From the NCBI GenBank assembly GCA_965219095.1, contig OZ244719.1:482142-546141 (forward strand): 64,000 nt of DNA. The letters run 5' to 3'. Below, one piece after another: positions 1 to 54,356 of this stretch (the first letter of the stretch is position 1; each line of letters starts with the position of its first letter). Made by a program: the position numbers and the translations under genes. The DNA is from Bdellovibrionales bacterium. GTDB lineage: Bacteria > Bdellovibrionota > Bdellovibrionia > Bdellovibrionales > UBA1609. The notes beneath the pieces were generated by a model. That model worked only from the letters and a program-made list of their open reading frames with translations. It did not search any database and was not told where the DNA came from.

Positions 1-204
1 ACAATGGCTTTAATGGCGACAAAAAGCCTCTCAGCTGTCCAAGCAAGTCTTGGGCATAAGGATCAAGCTATGACTCAAAGGTATGCAAAAGTGGTGGCTC
101 TCATTAACTCGGATATGGCAGAAAAAACAGCTCAGATGTATGAAATGAACTCTTTAGGTTCATCTCCATCACGACAGATCACGACGTCTTTACAGACAAA
201 ATGA
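1..204 (+). CDS. int: Tyrosine integrase, C-terminal end (partial, runs off the window)
   Basis: LGH..TQRY catalytic His/Tyr motif; nucleotide sequence identical to the 3' end of the integrase ending at 23923. Confidence 0.9.
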   Translation, partial: TMALMATKSLSAVQASLGHKDQAMTQRYAKVVALINSDMAEKTAQMYEMNSLGSSPSRQITTSLQTK

Positions 205-408
205 ACTTTAGGATCAAAAGGATACTGGTAGTTGAATTTTAAAATTTTTTAAAATTTAAAAAAAGAATTCTAGCAGGAACACTTGGAATGAAAAACTCAC
301 GACGGAAATCACGACTTCTCACTAAAATAGCTAAGATATCACTCATAAAGTAGAGCGTGAAAGAAGTTCTAGCAGTGGAAAGTTTAAGGGATTTTTTGAA
401 AGTAAAAA

Positions 409-440
409 TTAAAACCCTCTCTAAAAAAAGAGGGTTTTAA
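409..440. terminator. Bidirectional intrinsic terminator between integrase and pilin cassette 1
   Basis: ttaaaaccctct-ctaaaaaa-agagggttttaa hairpin with A/T tails. Confidence 0.8.
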
Positions 441-464: not shown

Positions 465-896
465 TTAATATGCTGTTAATATTTTGTCTTGCTTGATTTC
501 CCATTTCTGAACACTGGTTTGGCCTGAGTTCCCCTCTGCACAAGCTGTAAATTTCTGGGGATTCACACTATTATCTATTTTACATGCTGCTCTTGCAATA
601 GCTGAAGTTTTCGTGCCTACAGTATTTTCATGTGCCAGATCACTTGCTCCACCTGTCACACACCCTGACGGTAGTGTTGTAAGTGCAGTATTAAAGCCAA
701 TTGTGTAATGGGTTGCTCCATCAGGTTTATCAAAACCTATGATGTTAAGATTATGGCAATACCCTGTGCTTTCATACTGAAAAGCTTTTTCTGCTGTATA
801 AAGAGCCCCTAAGTTAGTTTTAGCTTCACCGCTTCGTGCTTTTTTTCTAAACCCATCGAATGCAGGAATGGCAACTGCTGCAAGAATTCCTATAAT
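465..896 (-). other. Leader-less type IVa pilin cassette 1 (143 codons, open to stop)
   Basis: Manual translation: IIGILAAVAIPAFDGFRKKARSGEAKTNLGALYTAEKAFQYESTGYCHNL...KFTACAEGN...WEIKQDKILTAY*. In-frame TAG two codons upstream; no start codon or G|FTLxE prepilin leader. Confidence 0.9.
784..895. repeat. Pilin-helix direct repeat copy 1 (putative att site)
   Basis: Near-identical to 18524-18635 and 24520-24631; 834-895 identical in all three; identity stops abruptly after ...gaattcctataa. Confidence 0.92.
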
Positions 897-1081
897 CGGC
901 TAAAAGAGATCTGCTATGTTGTTGGAATCAGTAAAAAATAAATGAATATAAATAACTTATCCATTACTGTAAGCACCTTGATTTTCCTGAAACTTCTCGA
1001 TAGTACCCACATTTTAATTATTGATCACCTACAGATCACACATAAAATTAAGGAAATAATTTATACATACTCATATGAATT

Positions 1082-8855: not shown

Positions 8856-9926
8856 TTGATTTTGGAACGTATGATAAAGCAATATTTTTTCTTATTCCTT
8901 ATCCTAGTTTTTATTGTTTTAATTATTTTGCTTCCGTTTTGGTATGAGGATGTAATAAAAAGCTATTTTAAAATAGATGGCAACAATATCTCTAAGTGGG
9001 AAGTCATCAAGAGCTTAGGTTATGCTATTGGCGTAGTGGCTCTTCTTGCACAAATATCAATTTCTAGTCGCAGAACAGATGCCTCAGAAGAGTCAAATTT
9101 AAATCAACGTTACCATAACGCTATCGATCACTTATCGAGAGAAAATACAACAGCTAGGATTGGTGCTATTTATAACTTATATAATATATCAAAATCTTCA
9201 AGAGCTTATTGCAGAGTAATTTTTGATATATTTTGCACACACCTAAAAGGAAAAGGCAATAACTTTGAAATCAGAAAGGAAGAAAAGCAATTGATTGTTG
9301 ATAAGTTATTTCGAGCCAGAAAAGAAGATAGAGTTTTGAGTAATCCTCAAAAAGTAGAACTTCAAAATATAGACTTTACAGATATAAATTTTGAAAAAGC
9401 ATTTTTGAGAGAAGCAAAATTTATAGGAACTAATTTAGAAAGTTGTTCTTTTAAAGAAGCAGACCTAACTGAGTCATGCTTGCCAGCAGAATTAAAAGGG
9501 GTTAAAAGCATGGAGAAAGCAATATTGAATAAAACGGAGTTCAAATCTGGTAGTATTCTTAGAGGCCTTATCATGAATAACGGAAAGTGGAAAGATGCAA
9601 AGATTTTATATAGCGACTTGTCAAATGCAAAGTTAGAAAATGTGGATTTAACGAGAACAAAATTAACAGGAACAAAGTTAGAAAATGCAAATTTAAAAGG
9701 GGCAAATTTAAAAGGGGCAAATTTAAAAAAGGCTACCTTGGAAAATGTTGATTTAACAAAAGCAGATCTTTCGTATGCCAAGAACTTAACTTTTAATCAA
9801 TTGGTTGAGGTGAGTAGCTTGCACGGTATTATCGGATTAGATGAGAAAATTGAAAGGAAGTTAAAGACAGAAAAACCAGAGCTTTTTCAAAAAAAGCAAG
9901 AAAATATAAAGGAGGACGCAAAATGA
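8856..9926 (+). CDS. Membrane-anchored pentapeptide-repeat protein
   Basis: Two N-terminal TMs, AIDHL..ARIGAIYNL motif, A(N/D)LxG repeats. Confidence 0.85.
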   Translation: MILERMIKQYFFLFLILVFIVLIILLPFWYEDVIKSYFKIDGNNISKWEVIKSLGYAIGVVALLAQISISSRRTDASEESNLNQRYHNAIDHLSRENTTARIGAIYNLYNISKSSRAYCRVIFDIFCTHLKGKGNNFEIRKEEKQLIVDKLFRARKEDRVLSNPQKVELQNIDFTDINFEKAFLREAKFIGTNLESCSFKEADLTESCLPAELKGVKSMEKAILNKTEFKSGSILRGLIMNNGKWKDAKILYSDLSNAKLENVDLTRTKLTGTKLENANLKGANLKGANLKKATLENVDLTKADLSYAKNLTFNQLVEVSSLHGIIGLDEKIERKLKTEKPELFQKKQENIKEDAK

Positions 9927-10669
9927 GTAAAAATAAAATAAAAATCAATGGGAGAGAACAAGACATTCAGTGTGGTTTAATTAACGGGGAGAGTTTATAT
10001 TCGCAACTTAATATGTCATGTGATGGAGAACGGTTATTTTTAGATGTTCAAAGTGAAGTTGATATTCCAATTAACAAAGATGATTATATTGTTATATTAG
10101 GCAAAGAAAGCTTTGTAACTGGAAAATCTAAAATAGACGATAATCCTGCTTTAAAAAAGCAGATATCTATTAAAGTAGATGACAATCCTATCGAATTATC
10201 TAAACCCAAGATAACAGGAAAAGAAATTAAAGATAGTTGTAAAGATTCGCTACCCAATAGCAATCTTTACATAGACTTATTAAATATTCCTGATCAGCTA
10301 ATCAAAGATGATTTTATGTTAATTATTAACCCTGATCCTAAAAGCCCTGAGCATTGCTTTATAATAGTGCCTGTGTCAGATGATAATATTATTGATACTG
10401 AAGAATGTGCCAAACATAACAAAAAGCCTCCTAAAAAACAAGATAAGTATAAAATAAAAATAGATGGTCAAAAATATATTGCTCCTGCTTGGCAATTATC
10501 AGGTAAAGAAATATTAAAATTAGCAAATAAAGAATGGCAACAGTTTAGCTTGCAGCAAAAATTTAAAGGAGGAGAAAGAAAAGTTATAGGACCTGAGTCT
10601 AAAGTAGATTTTTCTACACCAGGTGTTGAACGCTTTGAAACTGTTCCAAAAGAAGCACAACAAGGATAA
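9923..10669 (+). CDS. Multi-ubiquitin-domain protein (three Ubl repeats, C-terminal Gly)
   Basis: Three IK(I/V)(N/D)...(I/L)xGxE-type repeats; ends DFSTPGVERFETVPKEAQQG. Confidence 0.85.
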   Translation: MSKNKIKINGREQDIQCGLINGESLYSQLNMSCDGERLFLDVQSEVDIPINKDDYIVILGKESFVTGKSKIDDNPALKKQISIKVDDNPIELSKPKITGKEIKDSCKDSLPNSNLYIDLLNIPDQLIKDDFMLIINPDPKSPEHCFIIVPVSDDNIIDTEECAKHNKKPPKKQDKYKIKIDGQKYIAPAWQLSGKEILKLANKEWQQFSLQQKFKGGERKVIGPESKVDFSTPGVERFETVPKEAQQG

Positions 10670-10671
10670 AT

Positions 10672-11052
10672 ATGGATTTTGAATTGCCAGAAGATGACGT
10701 AGGTTTTCTCAACAATTCGTTTGAAGGTAGATGGAGTACTATAATTAACTCTACAGAGCAGGGTATAATTATTAGGAACTATTCTTTACCAGAGGGTTAT
10801 GATCCATCTGAGGTAAAAGTAATGATTTTAATTCCACAAAATTATCCTATGGCTGCCCTTGATATGTTTTATTTATGCCCTGGGACATTTAAAAAAAATG
10901 GTCATAACATAGAACAATTAAGTGATGAATCTCATTTTGATAAGCAGTGGCAACGTTGGTCAAGACACTACGAATGGCAGGCTGGGACCAATAATATTGC
11001 AATACATTTGAAATTTGTTGAAAATGCTTTAATAGACGAGTTAAAAAAATGA
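10672..11052 (+). CDS. Prokaryotic E2 (family E) ubiquitin-conjugating-like protein
   Basis: LPEGY...ILIPQNYPMAALDMFY...WQRWSRH. Confidence 0.85.
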   Translation: MDFELPEDDVGFLNNSFEGRWSTIINSTEQGIIIRNYSLPEGYDPSEVKVMILIPQNYPMAALDMFYLCPGTFKKNGHNIEQLSDESHFDKQWQRWSRHYEWQAGTNNIAIHLKFVENALIDELKK

Positions 11053-12425
11053 AATACTCTCTCTCTTTAAACAACGAACAGCATCAGAAGCTAAAAAATC
11101 ATCTGCTTATAGATCATTTGGAATCTGTTGCATTGATCCTTTGCCATCAATCTAAGAGTACAAGTCAGATAAAGCTAATTGCCTCTGAAATTATTTTAAT
11201 TTCACATAGCTTATGCAAAAGAACAAAGGCCAATATTACTTGGCCAGTTGAAAAATATTTTACTCCATTGCAAATTGAGAGAATGGACAAAGAAAAATTA
11301 TCTTTAATGACGATACATAGTCACCCCAACGGATATAACAATTTTTCAAATTTAGATAACAATAACGATAATATCTTATTTAGATCAGTAAATAATTGGT
11401 TTAATGACGAGAGACCAAATGGTTCGCTTGTAATGTTGCCAAATGATCATCTCTTTGGAAGAGTTGTTAATAAGGCTGGGGATTTTACTCCATTATCACA
11501 CATTAGTATTGCAGGAAGTAATATAAAGATTTTAAAGCATAAAAAGGAAAATAGCAATGTACCGAAGTTTAGTAAACGAGTCGCTCAAACTTTTGGAAAA
11601 CACACACTTTCTACTCTAAAGCAATTGAATGTTGGTGTCGTTGGATGCTCTGGAACAGGAAGTATTATTATTGAGTTGTTAGCTCGTAACTGCATTGGAG
11701 AATTAGTTATTGTCGATCCTGATATAGTTGAAGAAAAAAACTTAAATAGGATATTAAATACTGCATCGAGTGATGCCAATAGGACAAACCCTAAAGTTAA
11801 AGTTCTAAAAAGAGCAATTCAAAAGTTAGATATGGGAACGGAGGTATCTGCTTACCAATCTACTACATCTGATAGAAAAGTCATATCGGCATTAAAAAAC
11901 TGTGATATTTTATTTGGTTGTGTTGATTCAGCTATTGGTAGATACCATCTTGATTGTGTGTCATCTGCTTATATAATTCCTTACTTTGATATTGGAGTTC
12001 GAATTGATGCAGATAAAAAGGGAAATATCTCTCAGGCAATTACAGTTGCCCATTATATTGAACCAGGACAATCGAATCTTTTGTCAAGGGGGGCCTATAC
12101 TAGTGAACAAGTGAGGGTGGAGAGTTTAAAGATACACAACCCAACTCATTATGAACAACAAAAAAAAGAAGGCTATATTTCTGGAATAGATGAAGATCAA
12201 CCTGCAGTAATATCAGTTAATATGCAAGCTGCGTGTATGTCATTTAATGACTTTATAGCACGTATTCATAATTATCGGCTAGATAGTAATTGTGATTTTG
12301 CTATTCAACAAATGAGTTTAACCCATGGATACTATAGACATCAAAAAAACAAGCAAGGACTTCATCCACTCTTTGCTAAAAATTTTAGCAAAGCCGATCA
12401 ATCTGATCTATTGAAATTGATATGA
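11049..12425 (+). CDS. JAB-peptidase-like + ThiF/E1 fusion
   Basis: N-terminal E..IHSHP...S..D; C-terminal VGCSGTGS, VDPD.VEEKNLNR, GCVD. Confidence 0.88.
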   Translation: MKYSLSLNNEQHQKLKNHLLIDHLESVALILCHQSKSTSQIKLIASEIILISHSLCKRTKANITWPVEKYFTPLQIERMDKEKLSLMTIHSHPNGYNNFSNLDNNNDNILFRSVNNWFNDERPNGSLVMLPNDHLFGRVVNKAGDFTPLSHISIAGSNIKILKHKKENSNVPKFSKRVAQTFGKHTLSTLKQLNVGVVGCSGTGSIIIELLARNCIGELVIVDPDIVEEKNLNRILNTASSDANRTNPKVKVLKRAIQKLDMGTEVSAYQSTTSDRKVISALKNCDILFGCVDSAIGRYHLDCVSSAYIIPYFDIGVRIDADKKGNISQAITVAHYIEPGQSNLLSRGAYTSEQVRVESLKIHNPTHYEQQKKEGYISGIDEDQPAVISVNMQAACMSFNDFIARIHNYRLDSNCDFAIQQMSLTHGYYRHQKNKQGLHPLFAKNFSKADQSDLLKLI

Positions 12426-12766
12426 TAAGATTATTTTTTGAAAAAATAAAAATATTTCTATATAACCTTTGGAAACCAAGCTATAGAACTGTCTGGACAG
12501 AAAATTTTCCAGAAAAACTCAAGAAAAGAATAGTTTATATTATTGGAAATAAAAAACATCCGTTTCAAGTTGTATTTTTGTGTCCTAAAAATTGTAATAA
12601 AAAAATTTTTCTTAATATATCAAAACAACACAATAAATTTGAACGTTGGAAGCTTATTGAACATAAAGATGGAACAGTCTCACTTGTTCCATCTATTTAC
12701 ATGAAAACTCTTGATTGTGACTGTCATTATTGGTTCAAAAGAGGACGCATCAATTGGATTCGATGA
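12422..12766 (+). CDS. DUF6527-like Cys/His protein
   Basis: FLCPKNC...W...SLVPSI...CDCHYWFKRGRINW. Confidence 0.75.
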   Translation: MIRLFFEKIKIFLYNLWKPSYRTVWTENFPEKLKKRIVYIIGNKKHPFQVVFLCPKNCNKKIFLNISKQHNKFERWKLIEHKDGTVSLVPSIYMKTLDCDCHYWFKRGRINWIR

Positions 12767-16663: not shown

Positions 16664-16924
16664 ATGAATAAAAAAGAATTGAAACCAATCAAGAAAAGTA
16701 GTAGTTTAGAGAACACTATTCGCCCTCAAAAAAAGGGCCTGTTCTTTGACAATTTAATAACTATTGAGGAGCTTTCAGAAAATTTAGGTTTATCTAAGAA
16801 GACTTTACAAAATTGGGTTTCTTTAAGGAAAATCCCTTATGTAAAAATAGGCCGAAAGGTTTATTTTAGGTCTTCTCGCTTACAGCAGTGGATTGAACGA
16901 AAGGAGTTCAAATCATGTCTGTAA
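16664..16924 (+). CDS. xis: Excisionase/HTH_17 recombination directionality factor
   Basis: LITIEELSENLGLSKKTLQNWV...IPYVKIGRKVYF; overlaps int start. Confidence 0.85.
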   Translation: MNKKELKPIKKSSSLENTIRPQKKGLFFDNLITIEELSENLGLSKKTLQNWVSLRKIPYVKIGRKVYFRSSRLQQWIERKEFKSCL

Positions 16925-18117
16925 CTAAAATTAAAAGAAAAAAAAAGAACGTCTATCAAGCTCAAGTGTATGTCAGAGGAGTGAGGCTTTCGAGTAAAGT
17001 TTTTGAAAACAAAACTCAAGCTTACATTTGGCATGATAGAGAAAAAGATCGCCTTGAAAAAGGTGAAACTATAGAAGAAAAAGAACTTAAAGAATTGCTT
17101 TTTTGCGATTGTGTAGAAAAGTACATCAAAGAGTATCTGCCTAAACTGAGAGCTTCCAGCCAGAGAAAAATCTTATTGAATCTGAAAAATCTTTCAGTTA
17201 ACAGCCCCTTAAATAAAGTCAAGATGTTAGACTTAAAGGCAAAGGAGATAAGCCTTTGGATTTCTTGGTTTCAAAAGAAAACTAAGAAGTGTAGGCAAAG
17301 ACAGAGTTTTAAAACAGAGTTTAGGCGACTTGTAGCTGTTCTAAACTGGTGGAGAAATTATGTTGACCCAAATTTTGTTGTTCCTGTAGTGAAAATGCAT
17401 AGAGATATTTGCTATGAGACAACTCAAAAACTAAGACGACCTGACTACTTTGCTAGACCAGAAGAAATACAGCTTTGGCTTCAAAAGCTTCAGAAAATAT
17501 CTAACCCTGTTTATTATAGACTGGCAAAGTTTATGATTTTAACAGGAGCTAGAGTGAGTGAAGCTTGTGGGCTTTTATGGAAAGAAGTTGTCTTTGAAGA
17601 AAAATTTGTACGTGTGGTAAGGACAGCTGATTGGGGAGGTAACAAAATAACTCTCTGTGAAGACACTAAAACGAAAGCATCTAACAGGCTTTTGGTTCTT
17701 CCAGAGAGACTTGTGGAGTTGTTAAGGGTTATGAAAAGTGAGTCTCCCGAAAATCCCTTAGTCTTTCATTCAAGAGAAGGTGAAATGGTGTCTTATACAA
17801 GCATTCGCTGGGCTTTTGATAAGTCCTTTAAGGCCTGCAATCTTCCTTGGAGAGGGACTCATATTTGCCGTCATACTTATGCCACAATGGCACTTATGGC
17901 GACAAAAAGTCTTTCCGCTGTGCAAGCAAGTCTTGGGCATACAGATCAAGCTATGACTCAAAGGTATGCTAAAGCGGTAGCTTTAATAAATTCTGATATG
18001 GCAGAAAGAACGGCTAGCATGTACGAATCGAAATCACTTACAAAATCACTTACGCACCCTCAAAAGACCCTAAATGAGTCCTCATTAAGGATAAGGGAAA
18101 GTGATTCTAGCAGTTGA
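16915..18117 (+). CDS. int: Tyrosine integrase, intact (unit B)
   Basis: TGARVSE, KT, HICRH, LGH, TQRY catalytic set. Confidence 0.95.
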   Translation: MSVTKIKRKKKNVYQAQVYVRGVRLSSKVFENKTQAYIWHDREKDRLEKGETIEEKELKELLFCDCVEKYIKEYLPKLRASSQRKILLNLKNLSVNSPLNKVKMLDLKAKEISLWISWFQKKTKKCRQRQSFKTEFRRLVAVLNWWRNYVDPNFVVPVVKMHRDICYETTQKLRRPDYFARPEEIQLWLQKLQKISNPVYYRLAKFMILTGARVSEACGLLWKEVVFEEKFVRVVRTADWGGNKITLCEDTKTKASNRLLVLPERLVELLRVMKSESPENPLVFHSREGEMVSYTSIRWAFDKSFKACNLPWRGTHICRHTYATMALMATKSLSAVQASLGHTDQAMTQRYAKAVALINSDMAERTASMYESKSLTKSLTHPQKTLNESSLRIRESDSSS

Positions 18118-18195
18118 ATTGTAAAGATTTAAAACCACTTCAAAAAGCAAAATGAATGGGTTTTTTTAGCTTGGATTTTGTGAGTTAAGAAAAGA

Positions 18196-18224
18196 AAAAC
18201 CCCTCCAAAAAAGGGAGGGGTTTT
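18196..18224. terminator. Intrinsic terminator after pilin cassette 2
   Basis: aaaacccctcc-aaaaaag-ggaggggtttt. Confidence 0.8.
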
Positions 18225-18243
18225 AAAGTAGAGTTTAAGTATT

Positions 18244-18633
18244 TTATGGTAGTACACTCAAACTTTTCTCATGATTAATTTGCCAGTTGGAATTTGTCGA
18301 ATCCCCGTTTCCTTCAGCACAAGCTATGAATTCATCACCTGCAGAGTTTAGCACACAGGTTGCCCCTATAATCTTAGCAACTACCGTAGCGGCAGTTGAT
18401 GGGTGACATTTATCCGTACAAGCAGTTTCTTTAAATCCAACAGCGTAGTGGCGTGTTCCAGAAGGTTCCTCAAATCCTATATTAGCTAGGACGTCTGAAT
18501 ATTTATCACCTTCATAAAGGTAGGCTTTTTCTGCTGTATAAAGAGCCCCTAAGTTAGTTTTAGCTTCACTACTTCGTGCTTTTTTTCTAAACCCATCGAA
18601 TGCAGGAATGGCAACTGCTGCAAGAATTCCTAT
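18244..18633 (-). other. Leader-less type IVa pilin cassette 2
   Basis: IGILAAVAIPAFDGFRKKARSSEAKTNLGALYTAEKAYLYEGD...FIACAEGN...WQINHEKSLSVLP*; upstream in-frame residues are not a prepilin leader. Confidence 0.9.
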
Positions 18634-18635
18634 AA
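18524..18635. repeat. Pilin-helix direct repeat copy 2 (putative att site)
   Basis: Near-identical to 784-895. Confidence 0.92.
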
Positions 18636-19023
18636 ATTGATTTGTAAACTTTTGTAAGTTTGCAGAATCACTAAAAAACAAAAAGAAAATAATAAATTAA
18701 CCTACCCATCTATTCCCGAATGTTAAGACTTTTCCCCTACATTGAACCTAGTTGATCACGACAAAATTCCGTACACGGACGCATATAAAAATCACGATAG
18801 TTCTAAAACAAACTTTAATTTCTTTTGTACTTACTTTTGAAAGCCAGGATTTAATTGTTGTATTATCTCTAGCGACATCCTTTCTGGTGCTTTTTTATCT
18901 GGTACTTTCTTATTTTCCTGTTACGTTACAGTAGGTTAGTGAGGGATATCGCAGTGAGGCCATTTGAAAGAAATTCTCTTAAAATCACTTGAAAAGAAAG
19001 TTTTTTTATATTATTATAATTGT

Positions 19024-19776
19024 ATGTCTTTAAAAAAACTCAATCATTCAATTCCTAAAGCTGTATGGGCTTCGATTCAAGCTGTTGCTAAAGAAACTCA
19101 AGAACTAGTAAAGTCTCAAAAAGAGAATGCCAAAGCTCAAAAAGAGACTGATCGCCAACTCAAAGAATCTCAAAAAGAAATCGCTAAAGCTCAAAAAGAG
19201 ACTGATCGCCAACTCAAAGAATCTCAAAAAGAAATCGCTAAAGCTCAAAAAGAAATCGCTAAAGCTCAAAAAGAGACTGATCGCCAACTCAAAGAATCTC
19301 AAAAAGATACTAATCAACGTATAGCACAACTCAACGAACTTTTCACAGGTCAATGGGGGAAGCTTATGGAAGCCTTTGTAAAAGGTGATTTAGTTAAACT
19401 TCTTCAAGAAAGGAACATCGATGTTAATGATATATGCTCTAATAGAGAGAAGACCTTTGAAGGTCAAAAATATGAGTTTGATATCATAGCCATTAATGGA
19501 AAAGAAACAGTAGCTGTGGAAGTAAAGACTACTTTACGGCTGAAAGACTTAACTTATTTTTTAAAAAAGTTAAAAACCTTTAAAAAGATGTTTCCTGAAT
19601 ATGAAGATAAGAAAATATACGGAGCTATGGCTTTTATAAAAGTGAATGAAGGAGCTGATAGGAGAGCTGAAAAAGATGGTTTATTTGTGATTCAAGCTGT
19701 AGGAGATAGTGGAAGCATTATTAATGCCAAACACTTTAAACCAAAGATCTTTTGTAATAACAATTCCAAAAAATAA
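19024..19776 (+). CDS. Coiled-coil tandem-repeat protein with C-terminal PD-(D/E)XK-like domain (DUF3782-like)
   Basis: KAQKETDRQLKESQKEIA repeats; QWGKLME...EFDIIA...VEVKTTL. Confidence 0.8.
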   Translation: MSLKKLNHSIPKAVWASIQAVAKETQELVKSQKENAKAQKETDRQLKESQKEIAKAQKETDRQLKESQKEIAKAQKEIAKAQKETDRQLKESQKDTNQRIAQLNELFTGQWGKLMEAFVKGDLVKLLQERNIDVNDICSNREKTFEGQKYEFDIIAINGKETVAVEVKTTLRLKDLTYFLKKLKTFKKMFPEYEDKKIYGAMAFIKVNEGADRRAEKDGLFVIQAVGDSGSIINAKHFKPKIFCNNNSKK

Positions 19777-20160: not shown

Positions 20161-20613
20161 AACATGGGGACACTGTCCCCATGTATAGGGGCAAAAGAAA
20201 ATTTTTATGCTCCTTTTTCCAGTTATAAACCCAAGTTTAGAATCAAGATGGAAGAAGAAAATCAACGTCACTCTGATAAACCTCCAAAGGGTTTTTATAG
20301 TTTGTTTGAAGATTTAAAACAAGCTTTCACATCACTTTGACCGATCGTAAAGAGGGGAAGCTCCAATTTGAAAAGTTAAATGGAGCTTTTTTAAAAGATG
20401 TGAGTTGTGTCTAATCAAAGGGGTAAAAGTGTGTCTAGAATTGGACAAAACCAAAGAGATGCCAAAGCTTAAAAGCACTTAAGATCATTTCATTTTTTCT
20501 TATTCAGAAAAAATGTTAAGAAAGTGTCTGACCTCCCTAAAAGCTTTTTTTCATTCTATCTTAAGATTTTCTTATTGGGGACTATTTTCTGCTTTTAACT
20601 ACTTATAAAAAAT

Positions 20614-20803
20614 GGCTCCTCCAGGGAATCTGTGGGTAAAAAGTAGTAGAAATCCCCCAAAAGAGCTCATATTAATCAAAGCAAGAGTAAGACATCCTGT
20701 CTTGTATTTTTGAGTTCTTTGAGGCCTTACTGACCTCTATCACCTCCGGTGATTGAACTCAAAAACATTCATTTTATTTGCTGTATTACATTAAAATCTT
20801 AAA
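20614..20803 (+). mobile_element. ISL3 left-end remnant
   Basis: Matches 3283-3475. Confidence 0.8.
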
Positions 20804-21013
20804 GAAAGAGAAGAAAAGGTGCGGAATGAAAAAATAAGAATCCTGAGGGTTCCTAGAAAGACCTTTTTTAAATTAAAAGAGCAGTTAGGTAATATAAAGT
20901 AAAGATATTGATCTGTTTTCTTTAAATTTCTCTAAAAACCAAGCTATTGTTTTCATATATGCACATTTTTAAGAATCTGTTTGAAAGAAATACACACTTG
21001 AATGCTGTTTGAA

Positions 21014-21109
21014 TGTTGCAGATCTGTTACAAATTTGCATATTTGTTACAAATGTAACAGATCTGTTACAAATGTATCGGATTCAGCAAATTTGTAACAA
21101 ATATGCAAC
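21014..21109. repeat. Cluster of direct and inverted TGTTACAAAT repeats
   Basis: Three TGTTACAAAT copies plus inverted TGTAACA copies within 96 bp. Confidence 0.75.
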
Positions 21110-21212
21110 TTTTCAAAAAAAAACAAGAAAAACCTTTTTTTTCATTTAAAACTTTATTGTAGCAAAAGGTTTTATAAAAGAGTCCTTTTTATAAAACCAA
21201 AAAGAAAGGAGT

Positions 21213-21945
21213 ATGTATGAAGCAAAAAACAAAAAAAGAGTTCTTATGAAGATAGAAGCACCTCAAAACCTTGTAAGCTTAAAAGCTCAAATCCAGACCC
21301 TTACTTCTCCAGAATTTAGAAACTCCTCTATACATGAAGAAAAAGAAATCGATCTCCTGGATGTTATGAAAAAAAATCAAATAGCCTATTTCCAGTTGAA
21401 TTTAAACAGCTATGGTTTTTTAGGTAAGAAAATCGGTAAAATTCTAGTTCAAGATCTAAAGGTTATAAGCTCTCAGATTCAATCAGGACAAGTGGATTTT
21501 AAGCCTTTACTTTTAGGGGTCTTGATTGATGAATTTGGATCTTTTGCTACACCTGATTTTTCAGATTTTTTAAAGCAAGTAAGATCTGCTGGTACAGGAG
21601 TTCACTTATTTTGCCAAGGCTTAGCTGATTTAAATGTTGTAAGTCAGAGTTTTAGCAATCAAGTGTTGGGAAGTGCGGCCACTAAAATCATACTTCGACA
21701 AGATGTGAAGAGGACTCTCGAAAAATGGGCTTTTACAGCTGTCACTAGGGGCACTGTAGGTAGGAGTTTTCAGGTCAGTGAACGCATTCTGGGGAACTTA
21801 AAAAAACAGGCTTAGGGAATCTTTTGGAGACCAAAAAAATGAAGATCGAACATGATGTTTTTAAGAGCTTAAAAGTAGGTCAGGCTGTACTCATTGATAA
21901 GATCAAAACCTCACAAGATTTGTTTCAAATTTTTAGCTTAAAGGA
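21213..21945 (+). pseudogene. Type IV coupling protein C-terminal remnant
   Basis: Paralogous to the C-terminal half of 14376-15971 (AYFQLN, IDEFGSFAT, GVHLFCQGLADL); no Walker A; frameshift near 21800. Confidence 0.85.
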
Positions 21946-22014
21946 GTGAGCTTTATGAGTAGTTTTAAAAAAATTCTGGAATTTTCTTATAGTGCTAAAA
22001 ACATGTCTTGCATG

Positions 22015-22178
22015 CACCCCCTTTCCTTTTCCCTTTGTCTTTATACACCCAACTCTGCTAAAACCTTCGGTTTTCACCGTGACCACCCTCTCCCGCTCAT
22101 ACTTTTTTTAGTATGGGAGAGGGTGGTCACGGTACCACAGAGTTGGGTGTATAGATGTGGGAAGAGGAAAGGGGGGTG
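22015..22178. repeat. Long nested inverted repeat downstream of T4CP remnant
   Basis: tatacacccaactctg/cagagttgggtgtata and accgtgaccaccctctccc/gggagagggtggtcacggt arms plus outer pyrimidine/purine arms. Confidence 0.85.
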
Positions 22179-22499
22179 TGAGAGGAGGAAAAAATAGAGA
22201 AAATTTTTAGAACTTTTAAATTAAAAATTTTCTCTATCAGGTTAAAAAATTTTTGTTTTTTTAAGTTTAACTTGAGTTTTTTTAATGGCCGAGAAAGGAG
22301 TAAAAAAAAAGGTCAAAAAACAAATAACAAATCAATCATGAAAGGAGTAGCATAATGCAAAGCAAGAAAAGTAAAATTTACGACACTTTTTTGAGTGCGT
22401 AAATTCATCATATTCAGTGAGGAAAAGTCAGAGTTCTTAGAAGAAACCAAATGAGGAAGTTTTTTAAGCTTCTTCGCCATATTTTGAAAGGAGAAAAAA

Positions 22500-22757
22500 A
22501 TGGATAAAAAAGAATTGAAACCAATTAAAAAAGGTAGTAGTTTAGAGAACACTATTCGCCCTCAAAAAAAGGGCCTGTTCTTTGACAATTTAATAACCGT
22601 AGAGGAATTAGCCTTAGCGTTTGGGCTGTCTCCTAGAACGATTAAAAATTGGGTGAGTTTAAGACAAATCCCCTTTATTCAGTTCAGAAGAAGGACTTAC
22701 TTTCTTAAAGACAGTATCCATAGATGGCTTCAACAAAAGGAGAAATCATGTCAATAA
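22500..22757 (+). CDS. xis: Excisionase/HTH_17
   Basis: LITVEELALAFGLSPRTIKNWV; first ~33 aa nearly identical to unit B xis. Confidence 0.85.
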   Translation: MDKKELKPIKKGSSLENTIRPQKKGLFFDNLITVEELALAFGLSPRTIKNWVSLRQIPFIQFRRRTYFLKDSIHRWLQQKEKSCQ

Positions 22758-23923
22758 CCAAACGTAAAAGGAAAAATAAAATAACATATCAAGCAGAAAT
22801 TTATGTAAGAGGAATTCGTCTGAAAGCAAAAAGCTTTCAAACAAAAACAGAAGCCTGTATATGGCACGATAAGGAAAAAAAACGTCTTCAAGAAGGAAGA
22901 GTTTCTCTTCAAGAAGAGTTAAGAGAACTTTTCTTTGAAGACTGTGTGAGAAGGTATCTTAAAGAGTATGTTCCTACTTTAAGAGATTCCAGTCAAAAGA
23001 AGATTCAACTTCTTTGCGAGAGGTTTTTTCTACAAAGTCCTTTAGCAAAAACAAAAATGTCAGATATAGACCATGTCAGTATTGACACTTGGATTGACTG
23101 GCTTTTTAGAAGCTTTAAAAACACTGTCAACCGCCATTCTTTTAGAATAGAGTTAAGGCGTCTTGGCTCTGTTCTTCACTGGTGGAGAAACTACCTTGAT
23201 CCAAGCTTTAGCTTTCCTATTGTTCGTGGTCATAGAAATCGGTGTTATGTGAAGAAGCGAGAATCTAAGGTGAAAAGGCCAGATTACTTTGCTAAACCTG
23301 AAGAGGTGAGGGCTTGGCTTAACGAACTTAAGAAGATTCAAAACCCTGTTTATTACCGTTTAGCTCAGTTTATGATTTTAACAGGAGCGAGAGTAAGTGA
23401 AGCTTGTGGACTTATGTGGAGTGAAATTGATTTTAAGAATCGTTTTGCAAGAGTTGTTAGAACAGCTGACTGGTCTTCTGAAAAACCTCAAATTCTAGAA
23501 ACCACAAAGACTAAGACTTCTGTAAGAGTTTTAACTCTTCCTGAAAAGCTCATAGAGCTTTTGTATGAAATGAAAGAGGAATCTAATAATCCTCTTGTGT
23601 TTTACTCTTCAGAAGGAAAAGTCGTTCCTTACACTACCATTCGTTGGGCCTTTGATAAGTCTTTTAAGACCTGCAATCTTCCTTGGAGAGGAACTCATAT
23701 TTGTCGTCATACTTATGCCACAATGGCTTTAATGGCGACAAAAAGCCTCTCAGCTGTCCAAGCAAGTCTTGGGCATAAGGATCAAGCTATGACTCAAAGG
23801 TATGCAAAAGTGGTGGCTCTCATTAACTCGGATATGGCAGAAAAAACAGCTCAGATGTATGAAATGAACTCTTTAGGTTCATCTCCATCACGACAGATCA
23901 CGACGTCTTTACAGACAAAATGA
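22748..23923 (+). CDS. int: Tyrosine integrase, intact (unit A)
   Basis: TGARVSE, HICRH, LGH, TQRY; start chosen by ggag RBS and alignment to unit B int. Confidence 0.95.
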   Translation: MSITKRKRKNKITYQAEIYVRGIRLKAKSFQTKTEACIWHDKEKKRLQEGRVSLQEELRELFFEDCVRRYLKEYVPTLRDSSQKKIQLLCERFFLQSPLAKTKMSDIDHVSIDTWIDWLFRSFKNTVNRHSFRIELRRLGSVLHWWRNYLDPSFSFPIVRGHRNRCYVKKRESKVKRPDYFAKPEEVRAWLNELKKIQNPVYYRLAQFMILTGARVSEACGLMWSEIDFKNRFARVVRTADWSSEKPQILETTKTKTSVRVLTLPEKLIELLYEMKEESNNPLVFYSSEGKVVPYTTIRWAFDKSFKTCNLPWRGTHICRHTYATMALMATKSLSAVQASLGHKDQAMTQRYAKVVALINSDMAEKTAQMYEMNSLGSSPSRQITTSLQTK

Positions 23924-24141
23924 ACTTTAGGATCAAAAGGATACTGGTAGTTGAATTTTAAAATTTTTTAAAATTTAAAAAAAAGAATTCTAGCAGGAAC
24001 ACTTGGAATGAAAAACTCACGACGGAAATCACGACTTCTCACTAAAATAGCTAAGATATCACTCATAAAGTAGAGCGTGAAAGAAGTTCTAGCAGTGGAA
24101 AGTTTAAGAGTTTTGAAGTAAAAAAAGACCTACTATAAATA

Positions 24142-24168
24142 AACCCCCCTTTTTCTAAAAAGGGGGTT
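24142..24168. terminator. Intrinsic terminator after pilin cassette 3
   Basis: C-run/T-run and A-run/G-run hairpin (aacccccctttttctaaaaagggggtt). Confidence 0.75.
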
Positions 24169-24185
24169 CTAGAAAGGTTTTCAGA

Positions 24186-24629
24186 TTAAGTACAGTCAGC
24201 TCCTGCGCCATTTGATTTTAAAATTTTAAGATTATCCATCTGCCAATTTGTTCCAACACTATCAAGCTTATTGCTTGTGTGATTTCCAAAAGCTCCAGCT
24301 TTGAAGGTTGTAGTTGTGTGTTCACATGCAGGTCCAGGAGCCCTTTTAGTGCCGGTAGCATGAGTAGAGTCGTGTTTTGCAGCAGCAGCCGCTGTTGCTG
24401 GGCATGTTCCCACTACAGCACTCGCCTTAAATCCGATAGAAAAATATTGCGTTCCCTCGGGTTTTCCAAAACCTATCAAATCCAAGTTATTACAATAATC
24501 GCCTTGTTCATAAAAGTACGCTTTTTCTGCTGTATAAAGAGCCCCTAAGTTAGTTTTAGCTTCACCGTCTCGTGCTTTTTTTCTAAACCCATCGAATGCA
24601 GGAATGGCAACTGCTGCAAGAATTCCTAT
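24186..24629 (-). other. Leader-less type IVa pilin cassette 3
   Basis: IGILAAVAIPAFDGFRKKARDGEAKTNLGALYTAEKAYFYEQGDYCNNLDLIGFGKPEG...WQMDNLKILKSNGAGADCT*; in-frame TGA nine codons upstream. Confidence 0.9.
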
Positions 24630-24631
24630 AA
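24520..24631. repeat. Pilin-helix direct repeat copy 3 (putative att site)
   Basis: Near-identical to 784-895 and 18524-18635. Confidence 0.92.
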
Positions 24632-25200
24632 AAAGAAAGAGATGAAGTTTTCCTCAAAGAGGCAGTTATGAAAATGGGAAAGTTTATTTTTATTACAAAT
24701 GAAAGGGGCTTAGATCGGAAGGATGTGTTATCGCTTTATCGCAGTAGAGATGGGATAGAAAGATTATTTAGATCTTTTAAGCACAATATTCTTGAAAAAA
24801 GGAGTAGGGTAAAATCAGAGGATGTCCCATTTCTCGGTGGAATTAGTTAGAGGGCGATTTCATGTTTAAGCGACCTTTCTTTGTTTTGCAACCATTTTTT
24901 CTAAGTTGTAATAGTCGCAACTTAATCTCTCACATAAACAATGTGATGAAAGAAAAGAATCTGTACAAGAAATTTTCAAAAACAGAGGTCTATAAAATTT
25001 TAGATAAATTAAAGTTCTATAAATTGGCCACAGGACAAACAAGATTAGGAGAGTTGTCCGGTAAGCAAAAGAGCCTTTATAAAGCTTTTAATGTGACTCG
25101 GGAAATCCCACACAGCTTTAAGTTGTAAAATCCCCTCTGACTAATGCGACGCATTACGAGGGCCGAATAAAAACCTAGTACCAAAATCCACAGAATTCAG
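24632..25200 (+). pseudogene. IS1634/IS4-like transposase C-terminal fragments with inserted IS scraps
   Basis: GKFIFITN...LYRSRDGIERLFRSFK; IS481 end at about 24907. Confidence 0.65.
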
Positions 25201-53866: not shown

Positions 53867-53941
53867 TATACACCCAACTCTGCTAAAACCTTCGGTTTTA
53901 GCAGAGTTGGGTGTGGGAAAAGAAAGGGAAAAGGAAAGGGA

Positions 53942-54169
53942 GTGCATGAAAGAGGAGCTCAGGTTTGTGGATATGCTCTAGTTTCTAGCTATGCTAAGAT
54001 TTATGGAAATGCTAGGGTTTTTGAAAATGCTAAGGTTTATGGAAATGCTAGGGTTGCTGGAAATGCTTGGGTTTTTGGAGAAGCTTGGGTTTCTGAAAAT
54101 GCTAGGGTTTATGGAAATGCTGAGGTTTCTGGATATGATGAGGTTTCTGGAAATGATAAGGTTTACTAA
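53942..54169 (+). pseudogene. Hexapeptide-repeat (NARVYG)n fragment
   Basis: 18-bp degenerate tandem repeats; 5' end abuts the hairpin relic. Confidence 0.55.
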
Positions 54170-54356
54170 AATACTTATGGATTATGATAAAAGCTTTGAG
54201 CCTGTAAATTAAATTGTGTAACTGATTCTCACTTTAAATATCACTTCCTTGACAAACAGCCATGTATCCTTTTGAAGTTGTTTTTTTATAAATCTAGTAC
54301 AGCATAACATTAAATTTTAATATTTTCATAATGCCTCTTAAACTTATTTCTAGCCT

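Follow-up and report, generated by a model that had tools for sequence, protein, structure and literature searches.

Alternative pilin forms are known to arise from silent cassettes, as in Neisseria, or through one invertase, as in Moraxella. In Moraxella pilin inversion and in the R64 shufflon, a constant N-terminus is joined to alternative C-termini through inverted repeats, and in a shufflon a single dedicated recombinase is encoded next to a compact group of invertible segments. The pilE/pilS system of Neisseria gonorrhoeae consists of one expressed type IV pilin and many silent partial copies, which give rise to patchwork variants (excerpt of PMC13321361). Two further systems that are not restricted to pilins are also close in organisation. 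Tandem arrays of SXT/R391 ICEs, whose integration site is in the 5' part of a protein-coding gene, yield RecA-dependent hybrids (excerpt of PMC2786100). In rhs C-terminal displacement, a conserved core is decoupled from variable tips, and arrays of displaced tips lie behind one intact gene (excerpt of PMC2935791). Pilin-replacing integrative elements, or the combination of features presented here, were not found described in a literature search made mostly at the level of abstracts, and the word 'pilin' is absent from PMC10111431. In the locus described below, the silent pilin heads would belong to the ends by which mobile elements attach and would be recombined among these elements, linking mobile-element accretion and antigenic variation in one locus.

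The window analysed here is a stretch of 64,000 nucleotides (C1 482142-546141) from a 3.11-Mb genome of two contigs, C1 and C2, which is 94% complete and has a listed contamination of 0.56%. The region C1 411-507 kb contains nine copies of a helix-coding repeat, of which five are forward and four are reverse; all have a common first base and are 91-100% identical to each other. Each begins a pilin head, and the modules are named by their position in kb: M483, M500 and M506 correspond to heads 1, 2 and 3 of the window, and M424 and M468 to the heads at C1 423989 and C1 468284. E411 (C1 411277-411777) is the sole copy of the nine that bears a leader and methylation motif (N_methyl, PF07963); its best solved relative is the type IV major pilin PilA, and pilus ATPase-family genes were found in the genome. 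The other eight C1 heads are leaderless. Most head pairs are 31-54% identical, yet all eight silent heads stay open from helix to stop, which suggests that they are expressed in turn or were recently imported. Seven of the nine heads are followed by a terminator and then by a convergent tyrosine integrase, which is int3 at E411, M483 and M506, int2 at M424, M449 and M500, and int4 at M468; these seven modules thus combine six different heads with three integrase types. The remaining two, M473 and M474, are placed tail to tail. They have one terminator in common (L049:7893-8871, equivalent to C1 473893-474871) and are exactly alike over 44 nt where the helix repeat ends, and their junction is the centre of the mirrored array. 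Core-to-core distances range from 5.6 to 25.5 kb. This layout would fit serial integration of elements at a site in the helix codons, each element bringing a replacement 3' end. Coupling-protein genes or remnants are the only transfer functions recognised among the array proteins scanned; a complete conjugation module was not recognised in them, and the three VirB4-family matches all lie outside C1 411-507 kb. One frameshifted and truncated head on C2 (G000:C2:2315434-2317655) is a displaced remnant, joined to unrelated DNA upstream, to what is probably an insertion sequence and to an incomplete integrase gene with 77% similarity to int3.

The array resembles Neisseria pilE/pilS in having one expressed pilin, silent leaderless copies, mosaics and recA, and one of its silent copies equals the expressed one. 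It differs in that the silent copies sit at the ends of integrase-bearing elements and have their own terminators, and in that an integrase route for switching would be available. No G-quadruplex motif was found in a pattern scan of C1 405-510 kb. With the SXT/R391 elements, as far as the excerpt describes them, it shares a tyrosine integrase, a common site in a protein-coding gene at which integration presumably occurred, tandem arrays and mosaics; unlike in those elements, a Bet/RecT homologue was not found, most transfer genes are lacking, half of the array is inverted, and the recombined part includes the hypervariable, replaced portion of the host gene. Compared with the rhs system as excerpted, the gene here is a pilin and not an Rhs protein, and the tips travel with a tyrosine integrase and recombine internally; the likeness is analogous only. 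As in the shufflon and in Moraxella, inverted helix repeats (five forward, four reverse) would join a constant N-terminus to alternative C-termini, but there are seven integrase genes of three types, elements of 5.6-25.5 kb, repeats of about 100 nt, and direct as well as inverted copies. The array fails a defining feature of each of the families compared.

The sequence-only reading of this DNA had started from two int3 modules in the window. Positions 1-388 equal 23720-24108 except for one extra A in a poly-A run of the second copy (first mismatch at 265, equality resuming after a 1-nt gap), and the identity stops before the terminator, the next bases after 388 being G in one copy and A in the other. 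The leftward extension that had been proposed as a check shows that the match continues for 2,685 nt outside the window and breaks at 2,686, with mismatches only at 16, 100 and 1,981 nt beyond the window edge. In total, the match between the two copies covers about 3,073 nt and is interrupted by 3 substitutions and 1 indel. This shared block of about 3.07 kb (21019..24108, forward strand; 99.8% identical to the copies at head 1 and at the expressed pilin) contains a coupling-protein remnant (21213-21815), an excisionase-like HTH_17 gene (22500-22757), int3 (22748-23923; Phage_integrase, PF00589) and a spacer. The int3 copy at head 1 enters the window only with its 3' end (1..204, forward); its full reading frame, C1 481170-482345, is 100% identical in protein to 22748-23923. 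The leaderless head 1 (465..895, reverse strand), a silent copy with a weak Pilin_PilA match below the cut-off, begins with a helix-coding core (784..895, reverse), and the crossover point would lie at the core start, at about 889-896. Head 3, also leaderless (24186..24631, reverse), abuts a genome-repeated sequence upstream. This 67-nt sequence (24633-24700) occurs at 8 other genome sites, stands directly against the head-3 helix repeat where an element end or a leader is expected, and is likely the end of an insertion sequence.

Heads 1 and 3 share a helix repeat that is 98% identical across 112 nt, and they diverge strongly beyond it, as do their terminators: protein identity is 31% beyond residue 36, and pS is 0.61-0.83 outside the helix versus 0.008 between their integrase genes. 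Point mutation alone is therefore insufficient to account for the heads. A third int3 module is present at E411, which lies 70 kb to the left of the window and has the same head as head 1 without any difference. E411 and M483 show zero differences through the first 2,875 nt, and the expressed head thus equals the silent head at 465-895, a result that a duplicated element would also give. The description of the carriers as otherwise identical elements does not hold, as they are 6.0, 8.2 and 12.6 kb long and have only about 3.1-3.7 kb in common. The int3 element with head 3 is the one of 6.0 kb, and its type A far end (18637..18835, 198 nt) is 95-97% identical among copies.

The identity between copies 1 and 3 ends at the last base of a 20-nt block (369..388, forward), which is 15/20 alike to a block at the int2 stop codon. 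The latter block (18107-18126), extended by 4 nt (18107..18130, forward), marks the border of identity between int2 modules with different heads. The border thus lies at the last base of the block in the int3 family and 4 nt past it in the int2 family, and the two main versions of the block are almost confined to the array, with one stray 4-mismatch match each. The block at 369..388 is likely a vestige of an older integrase 3' end, and the wider stretch 295-388 resembles a putative vestigial second integrase end. Two pairs of TCACGA direct repeats were found by motif scan at 169..314 on the forward strand (starts at 169, 179, 297 and 309; genome background 0.14 per kb), and two further occurrences of this hexamer are present in the far end of the int3 elements. 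Arm-type sites are a feature of lambda-type integrases, and by analogy the TCACGA repeats are probably such sites; if so, the part that can be replaced, with the crossover point on one side and the arms on the other, would be the head together with its terminator. All array terminators are homologous, and copies 1 and 3 are loosely alike for about 20 nt past 388. A terminator-like hairpin follows head 1 (408..439; -18.9 kcal/mol for a 66-nt stretch, z -4.0), the fold at head 2 has z -3.9, and the hairpin at head 3 (about 24136..24174) is weaker, with z -1.8 and 12 of 200 shuffles folding equally well.

The stretch is also present as contigs in three public sequencing runs (X1, X2 and X3), all of one study and one of them perhaps the source of the assembly. 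Depth in these contigs does not equal copy number, and the contigs break at the 112-nt helix repeat and cannot phase heads to chromosomal positions. In X1, an integrase-end contig (depth 15.3) ends exactly at 388 and continues either into head 1 (9.2) or into a second head (6.8); the head-3 contig of this run shows 0 differences but reaches only 30 nt into the integrase side, which misses the bridging rule by one nucleotide. X3 contains the continuation into head 1 as well as a loose end whose sequence is that of the head-3 terminator. X2 provides a single contig that spans 57-720 into head 1, and its bin for the head-3 terminator has a depth of 1.4, which is no evidence either way since contigs drop rare variants. 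The head-1 allele of X2 carries six changes within 15 nt (741-755) that alter three residues, at a depth of 4.7 in the error-prone range, and its bases, compared by hand, fit no single assembled head. The junction of leader and helix was found in X1 and X2. The coupling of heads to integrases is thus supported by the run contigs, and the physical order of the array comes from the assembly only.

These data bear on the possibility that the pattern is an artefact, either of repeats that were collapsed or polished or of haplotypes of different strains joined in one array. The genome being a two-contig assembly, the presence of two long, mirror-oriented repeats that are exact over 2,875 and 2,953 nt and the uneven depth of the X1 head contigs (3.1-9.2) would be compatible with such an origin. 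The branch at 388 into both heads in contigs of two of the three runs speaks against a plain misassembly, as do an unbranched X1 contig of 1,160 nt across most of int3 with 2 differing letters, the private substitutions and different IS insertion points of the copies, and the listed contamination of 0.56%; a mixture of strains, moreover, would still leave head and integrase decoupled in the population. An artefact is therefore considered quite improbable.

The int2 family repeats the pattern of the int3 family. The int2 gene of the window (16915..18117, forward; 63% to int3) has three near-identical copies in the genome, which are followed by three different heads: M424 is 99.3-99.5% identical to M449 and M500 over 3.3-3.9 kb, and its head is 41-44% identical to theirs. 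The neighbouring int2 element ends in a type B far end (897..1060) that is 97.6% identical to the 164 nt upstream of the M468 head. Head 2, which with its terminator occupies 18196..18635 (reverse), is mosaic, being similar to M424 in nt 1-200 and to M468 in nt 300-530. The alpha-beta loop of M449 and M500 is 91-92% identical to M424, whereas their C-terminal part is 44-45% identical to M424 and 71-79% to M468 and M474. At informative sites, M449 and M500 side with M424 in nt 101-150 (22/1) and with M468 in nt 301-400 (24/5 and 25/4), and from about nt 500-550 they revert to matching M424. Triplet tests gave p=0.0002 in four of five cases; in the fifth, with M424 as child, clustering was absent (p=0.82). 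A test of compatibility between neighbouring sites, which the conserved helix can bias, gave p=0.0005 over 144 sites. In the AU test, the C-terminal tree is rejected by the alpha-beta-loop data (p=2.8e-6), but the loop tree is not rejected by the C-terminal data (p=0.097), so that the result is one-sided. The C-terminal part and the terminator, in short, are like those of the int4 module and are carried on int2. M449 and M474 have 2,953 nt of exactly identical upstream sequence and different heads, an apparent footprint of exchange at the helix repeat. At the right-hand join of the M468-like segment to int2, homology to the assembled donor is almost absent; a plain two-sided homologous exchange thus fails for this join unless the true donor is missing, and either such a donor or microhomology may be needed. 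The claim that pilin and terminator form the exchanged unit proved too narrow, as left borders also occur at about nt 200 and about nt 300 inside the head; given these mosaics, the exchange unit is variable and is not always head plus terminator.

Two other explanations were weighed. In the first, a second site-specific cut would be made at the 20-nt block by the integrase or by another factor, with head and terminator as a true cassette. The borders of both families, which lie at or 4 nt beyond blocks that are 15/20 alike, and the near confinement of the block versions to the array are in line with such a cut. These are only two borders, however; the block overlaps the int2 stop codon, so that the gene end explains both conservation and border; by eye it is unlike the helix core; and the borders at nt 200 and nt 300 inside heads have no such block. 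A second specific cut is considered the least probable of the explanations. In the other, only the backbones would have been swept: the heads would be old residents that never moved as units, their diversity old and imported with the elements, and gene conversion would have homogenised the integrase block up to the end of homology. The loose similarity for about 20 nt past 388 with all terminators homologous, the integrase block at 99.9% versus far ends at 95-97%, and clustered patches in the int2 and int3 backbones are all compatible with this. One int2 copy has a private cluster of 8 differences within about 180 nt, another int2 copy has one of 7 within 120 nt, and two int3 copies differ from the third at 6 positions within 65 nt; recombination is thus not specific to heads and runs through whole elements. 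Sweeping of the backbones leaves unexplained, however, the mosaics inside heads (an int4-like C-terminal part and terminator on int2) and the equality of the expressed and a silent head. In pairwise comparison it looks like a swap of heads, and the question is one of direction rather than of a full alternative; as an explanation of the whole it is unlikely.

That recombination has decoupled head and terminator from the integrase, as the sequence-only reading had claimed, is well supported by the saturated pS of the heads beside a 99.9% identical backbone, by the repetition of the pattern in the int2 family and by the contig branch at 388. The presence of one integrase module beside different heads is probably the result of homologous recombination among the elements of the array, which would swap whole heads or parts of heads through crossovers in or just after the helix repeat and in the shared integrase block. 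The helix codons of the pilin would contain an att site at which elements integrated, and each module would represent the left end of one such element; the head would then be part of the att region, with the crossover point on one side of it and the arm-like repeats on the other. By acting on the helix repeat, the integrase could bring a new head behind the leader, through excision between direct copies or through inversion between the five forward and four reverse copies. Crossovers by the integrase at the helix would keep a head joined to its own integrase, and therefore their separation needs a second crossover. The most probable source is the host RecA, recombining direct and inverted repeats as it does in tandem SXT/R391 arrays (PMC2786100); it could act anywhere in the 3-kb shared block, and the visible border would then be the point at which homology runs out, at the end of the integrase and arm block. 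Heads 1 and 3, for instance, would trade places without loss if two helix repeats underwent an inversion and a second inversion then took place within two int3 blocks, and repeated events of this kind would homogenise the backbones and build new combinations of heads. The gene recA is present (C2 1498143-1499120). PF03837 (Bet/RecT) and ComEC each have zero matches in the 94% complete genome, and routes through transformation or Red-type recombination are therefore unsupported. A diversity-generating retroelement was considered and rejected; the genome has no PF00078 match, and the differences include indels, synonymous sites and terminators.

As to selection, the heads of M449 and M500 differ by 31 nonsynonymous and 9 synonymous changes and their integrases by 6 and 13 (Fisher p=0.001). 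The head pN/pS of about 1.0, available from this one comparable pair, is above that of the integrase and not above 1. Diversifying selection, as it had been worded, is unsupported by this value, which relaxed constraint also gives; as a factor acting on the heads it is plausible. The heads would likely stay functional and diverse by taking turns of expression under frequency-dependent selection, such as recognition by phage or host. Recombination of heads would keep renewing the pool of pilus variants available for switching on, and a fast turnover of pilus types is predicted for natural populations of this apparently uncultured Bdellovibrionales-like bacterium.

Close relatives of the integrases come from Bdellovibrionales or Oligoflexia. 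Among the best 80 of 313 related integrase loci in genome contigs, 13 (from 9 genomes) have a pilin within 4 kb, and none shows the convergent layout of head and integrase. No genome of the same genus is present among the 60 relatives searched. In 25 loci of relatives with multiple pilins, 34 of the 37 pilin matches have leaders and none lies with a related integrase. One genome (G024, L143-L152) contains 15 dispersed pilin matches; nearly all of the 10 loci fetched have leaders and none has a related integrase, and its pilin diversity follows another route. When metagenomes were scanned with int3, the 12 loci returned matched only distantly or over a short length. In viral contigs, the integrases found were all distant ones (24-31%, among the best 80 of 432) and the helix motif had 0 matches, and therefore no free circular form was found. 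In another genome (G016; L033, L035, L037 and L038), related integrases in conjugative-type elements adjoin paralogous pilins in the same orientation, complete or truncated, which may be cargo or targets.

In two loci, L085:2698-5903 and L129:347-6500, an intact pilin is accompanied by a related, divergent integrase, by arm-like repeats and by a leaderless head in inverted orientation. Their integrases are 81% alike mutually and about 41% to int3, their four heads are 43-56% alike, and the crossover lies about 8 codons deeper in the helix than in the C1 array. Behind a two-gene insert, L129 also has a leaderless copy in direct orientation, which is 98% identical to its expressed head. The layout of both loci is that of a putative two-state inversion switch. 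A wider reading in two layers is offered tentatively: the integrases would pick a stored head by excision or by inversions of 60-95 kb, recombination of the heads embedded in att sites would make new ones, conjugative helpers would trade heads between cells, and the same clade would be reduced to a two-state switch in other Bdellovibrionales. If this were true, it would trace an evolutionary path from a mobile element to a system of antigenic variation.

Several other features of the window were identified. The int2 element contains a cargo operon (9923-12766) with multi-ubiquitin, prokaryotic E2, ThiF/JAB and DUF6527 domains, which by these domains looks like a defence system. A gene at 18964-19776 possesses 21-nt coiled-coil repeats and a weak match to Hjc-like nucleases; several elements have a similar gene immediately within their far end, and the number of repeats differs among these genes. 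A tandem repeat with an 18-nt period is found at 53921-54208. Finally, a repeat of about 200 nt (20613-20806) with very many copies in the genome is probably a miniature transposable element.
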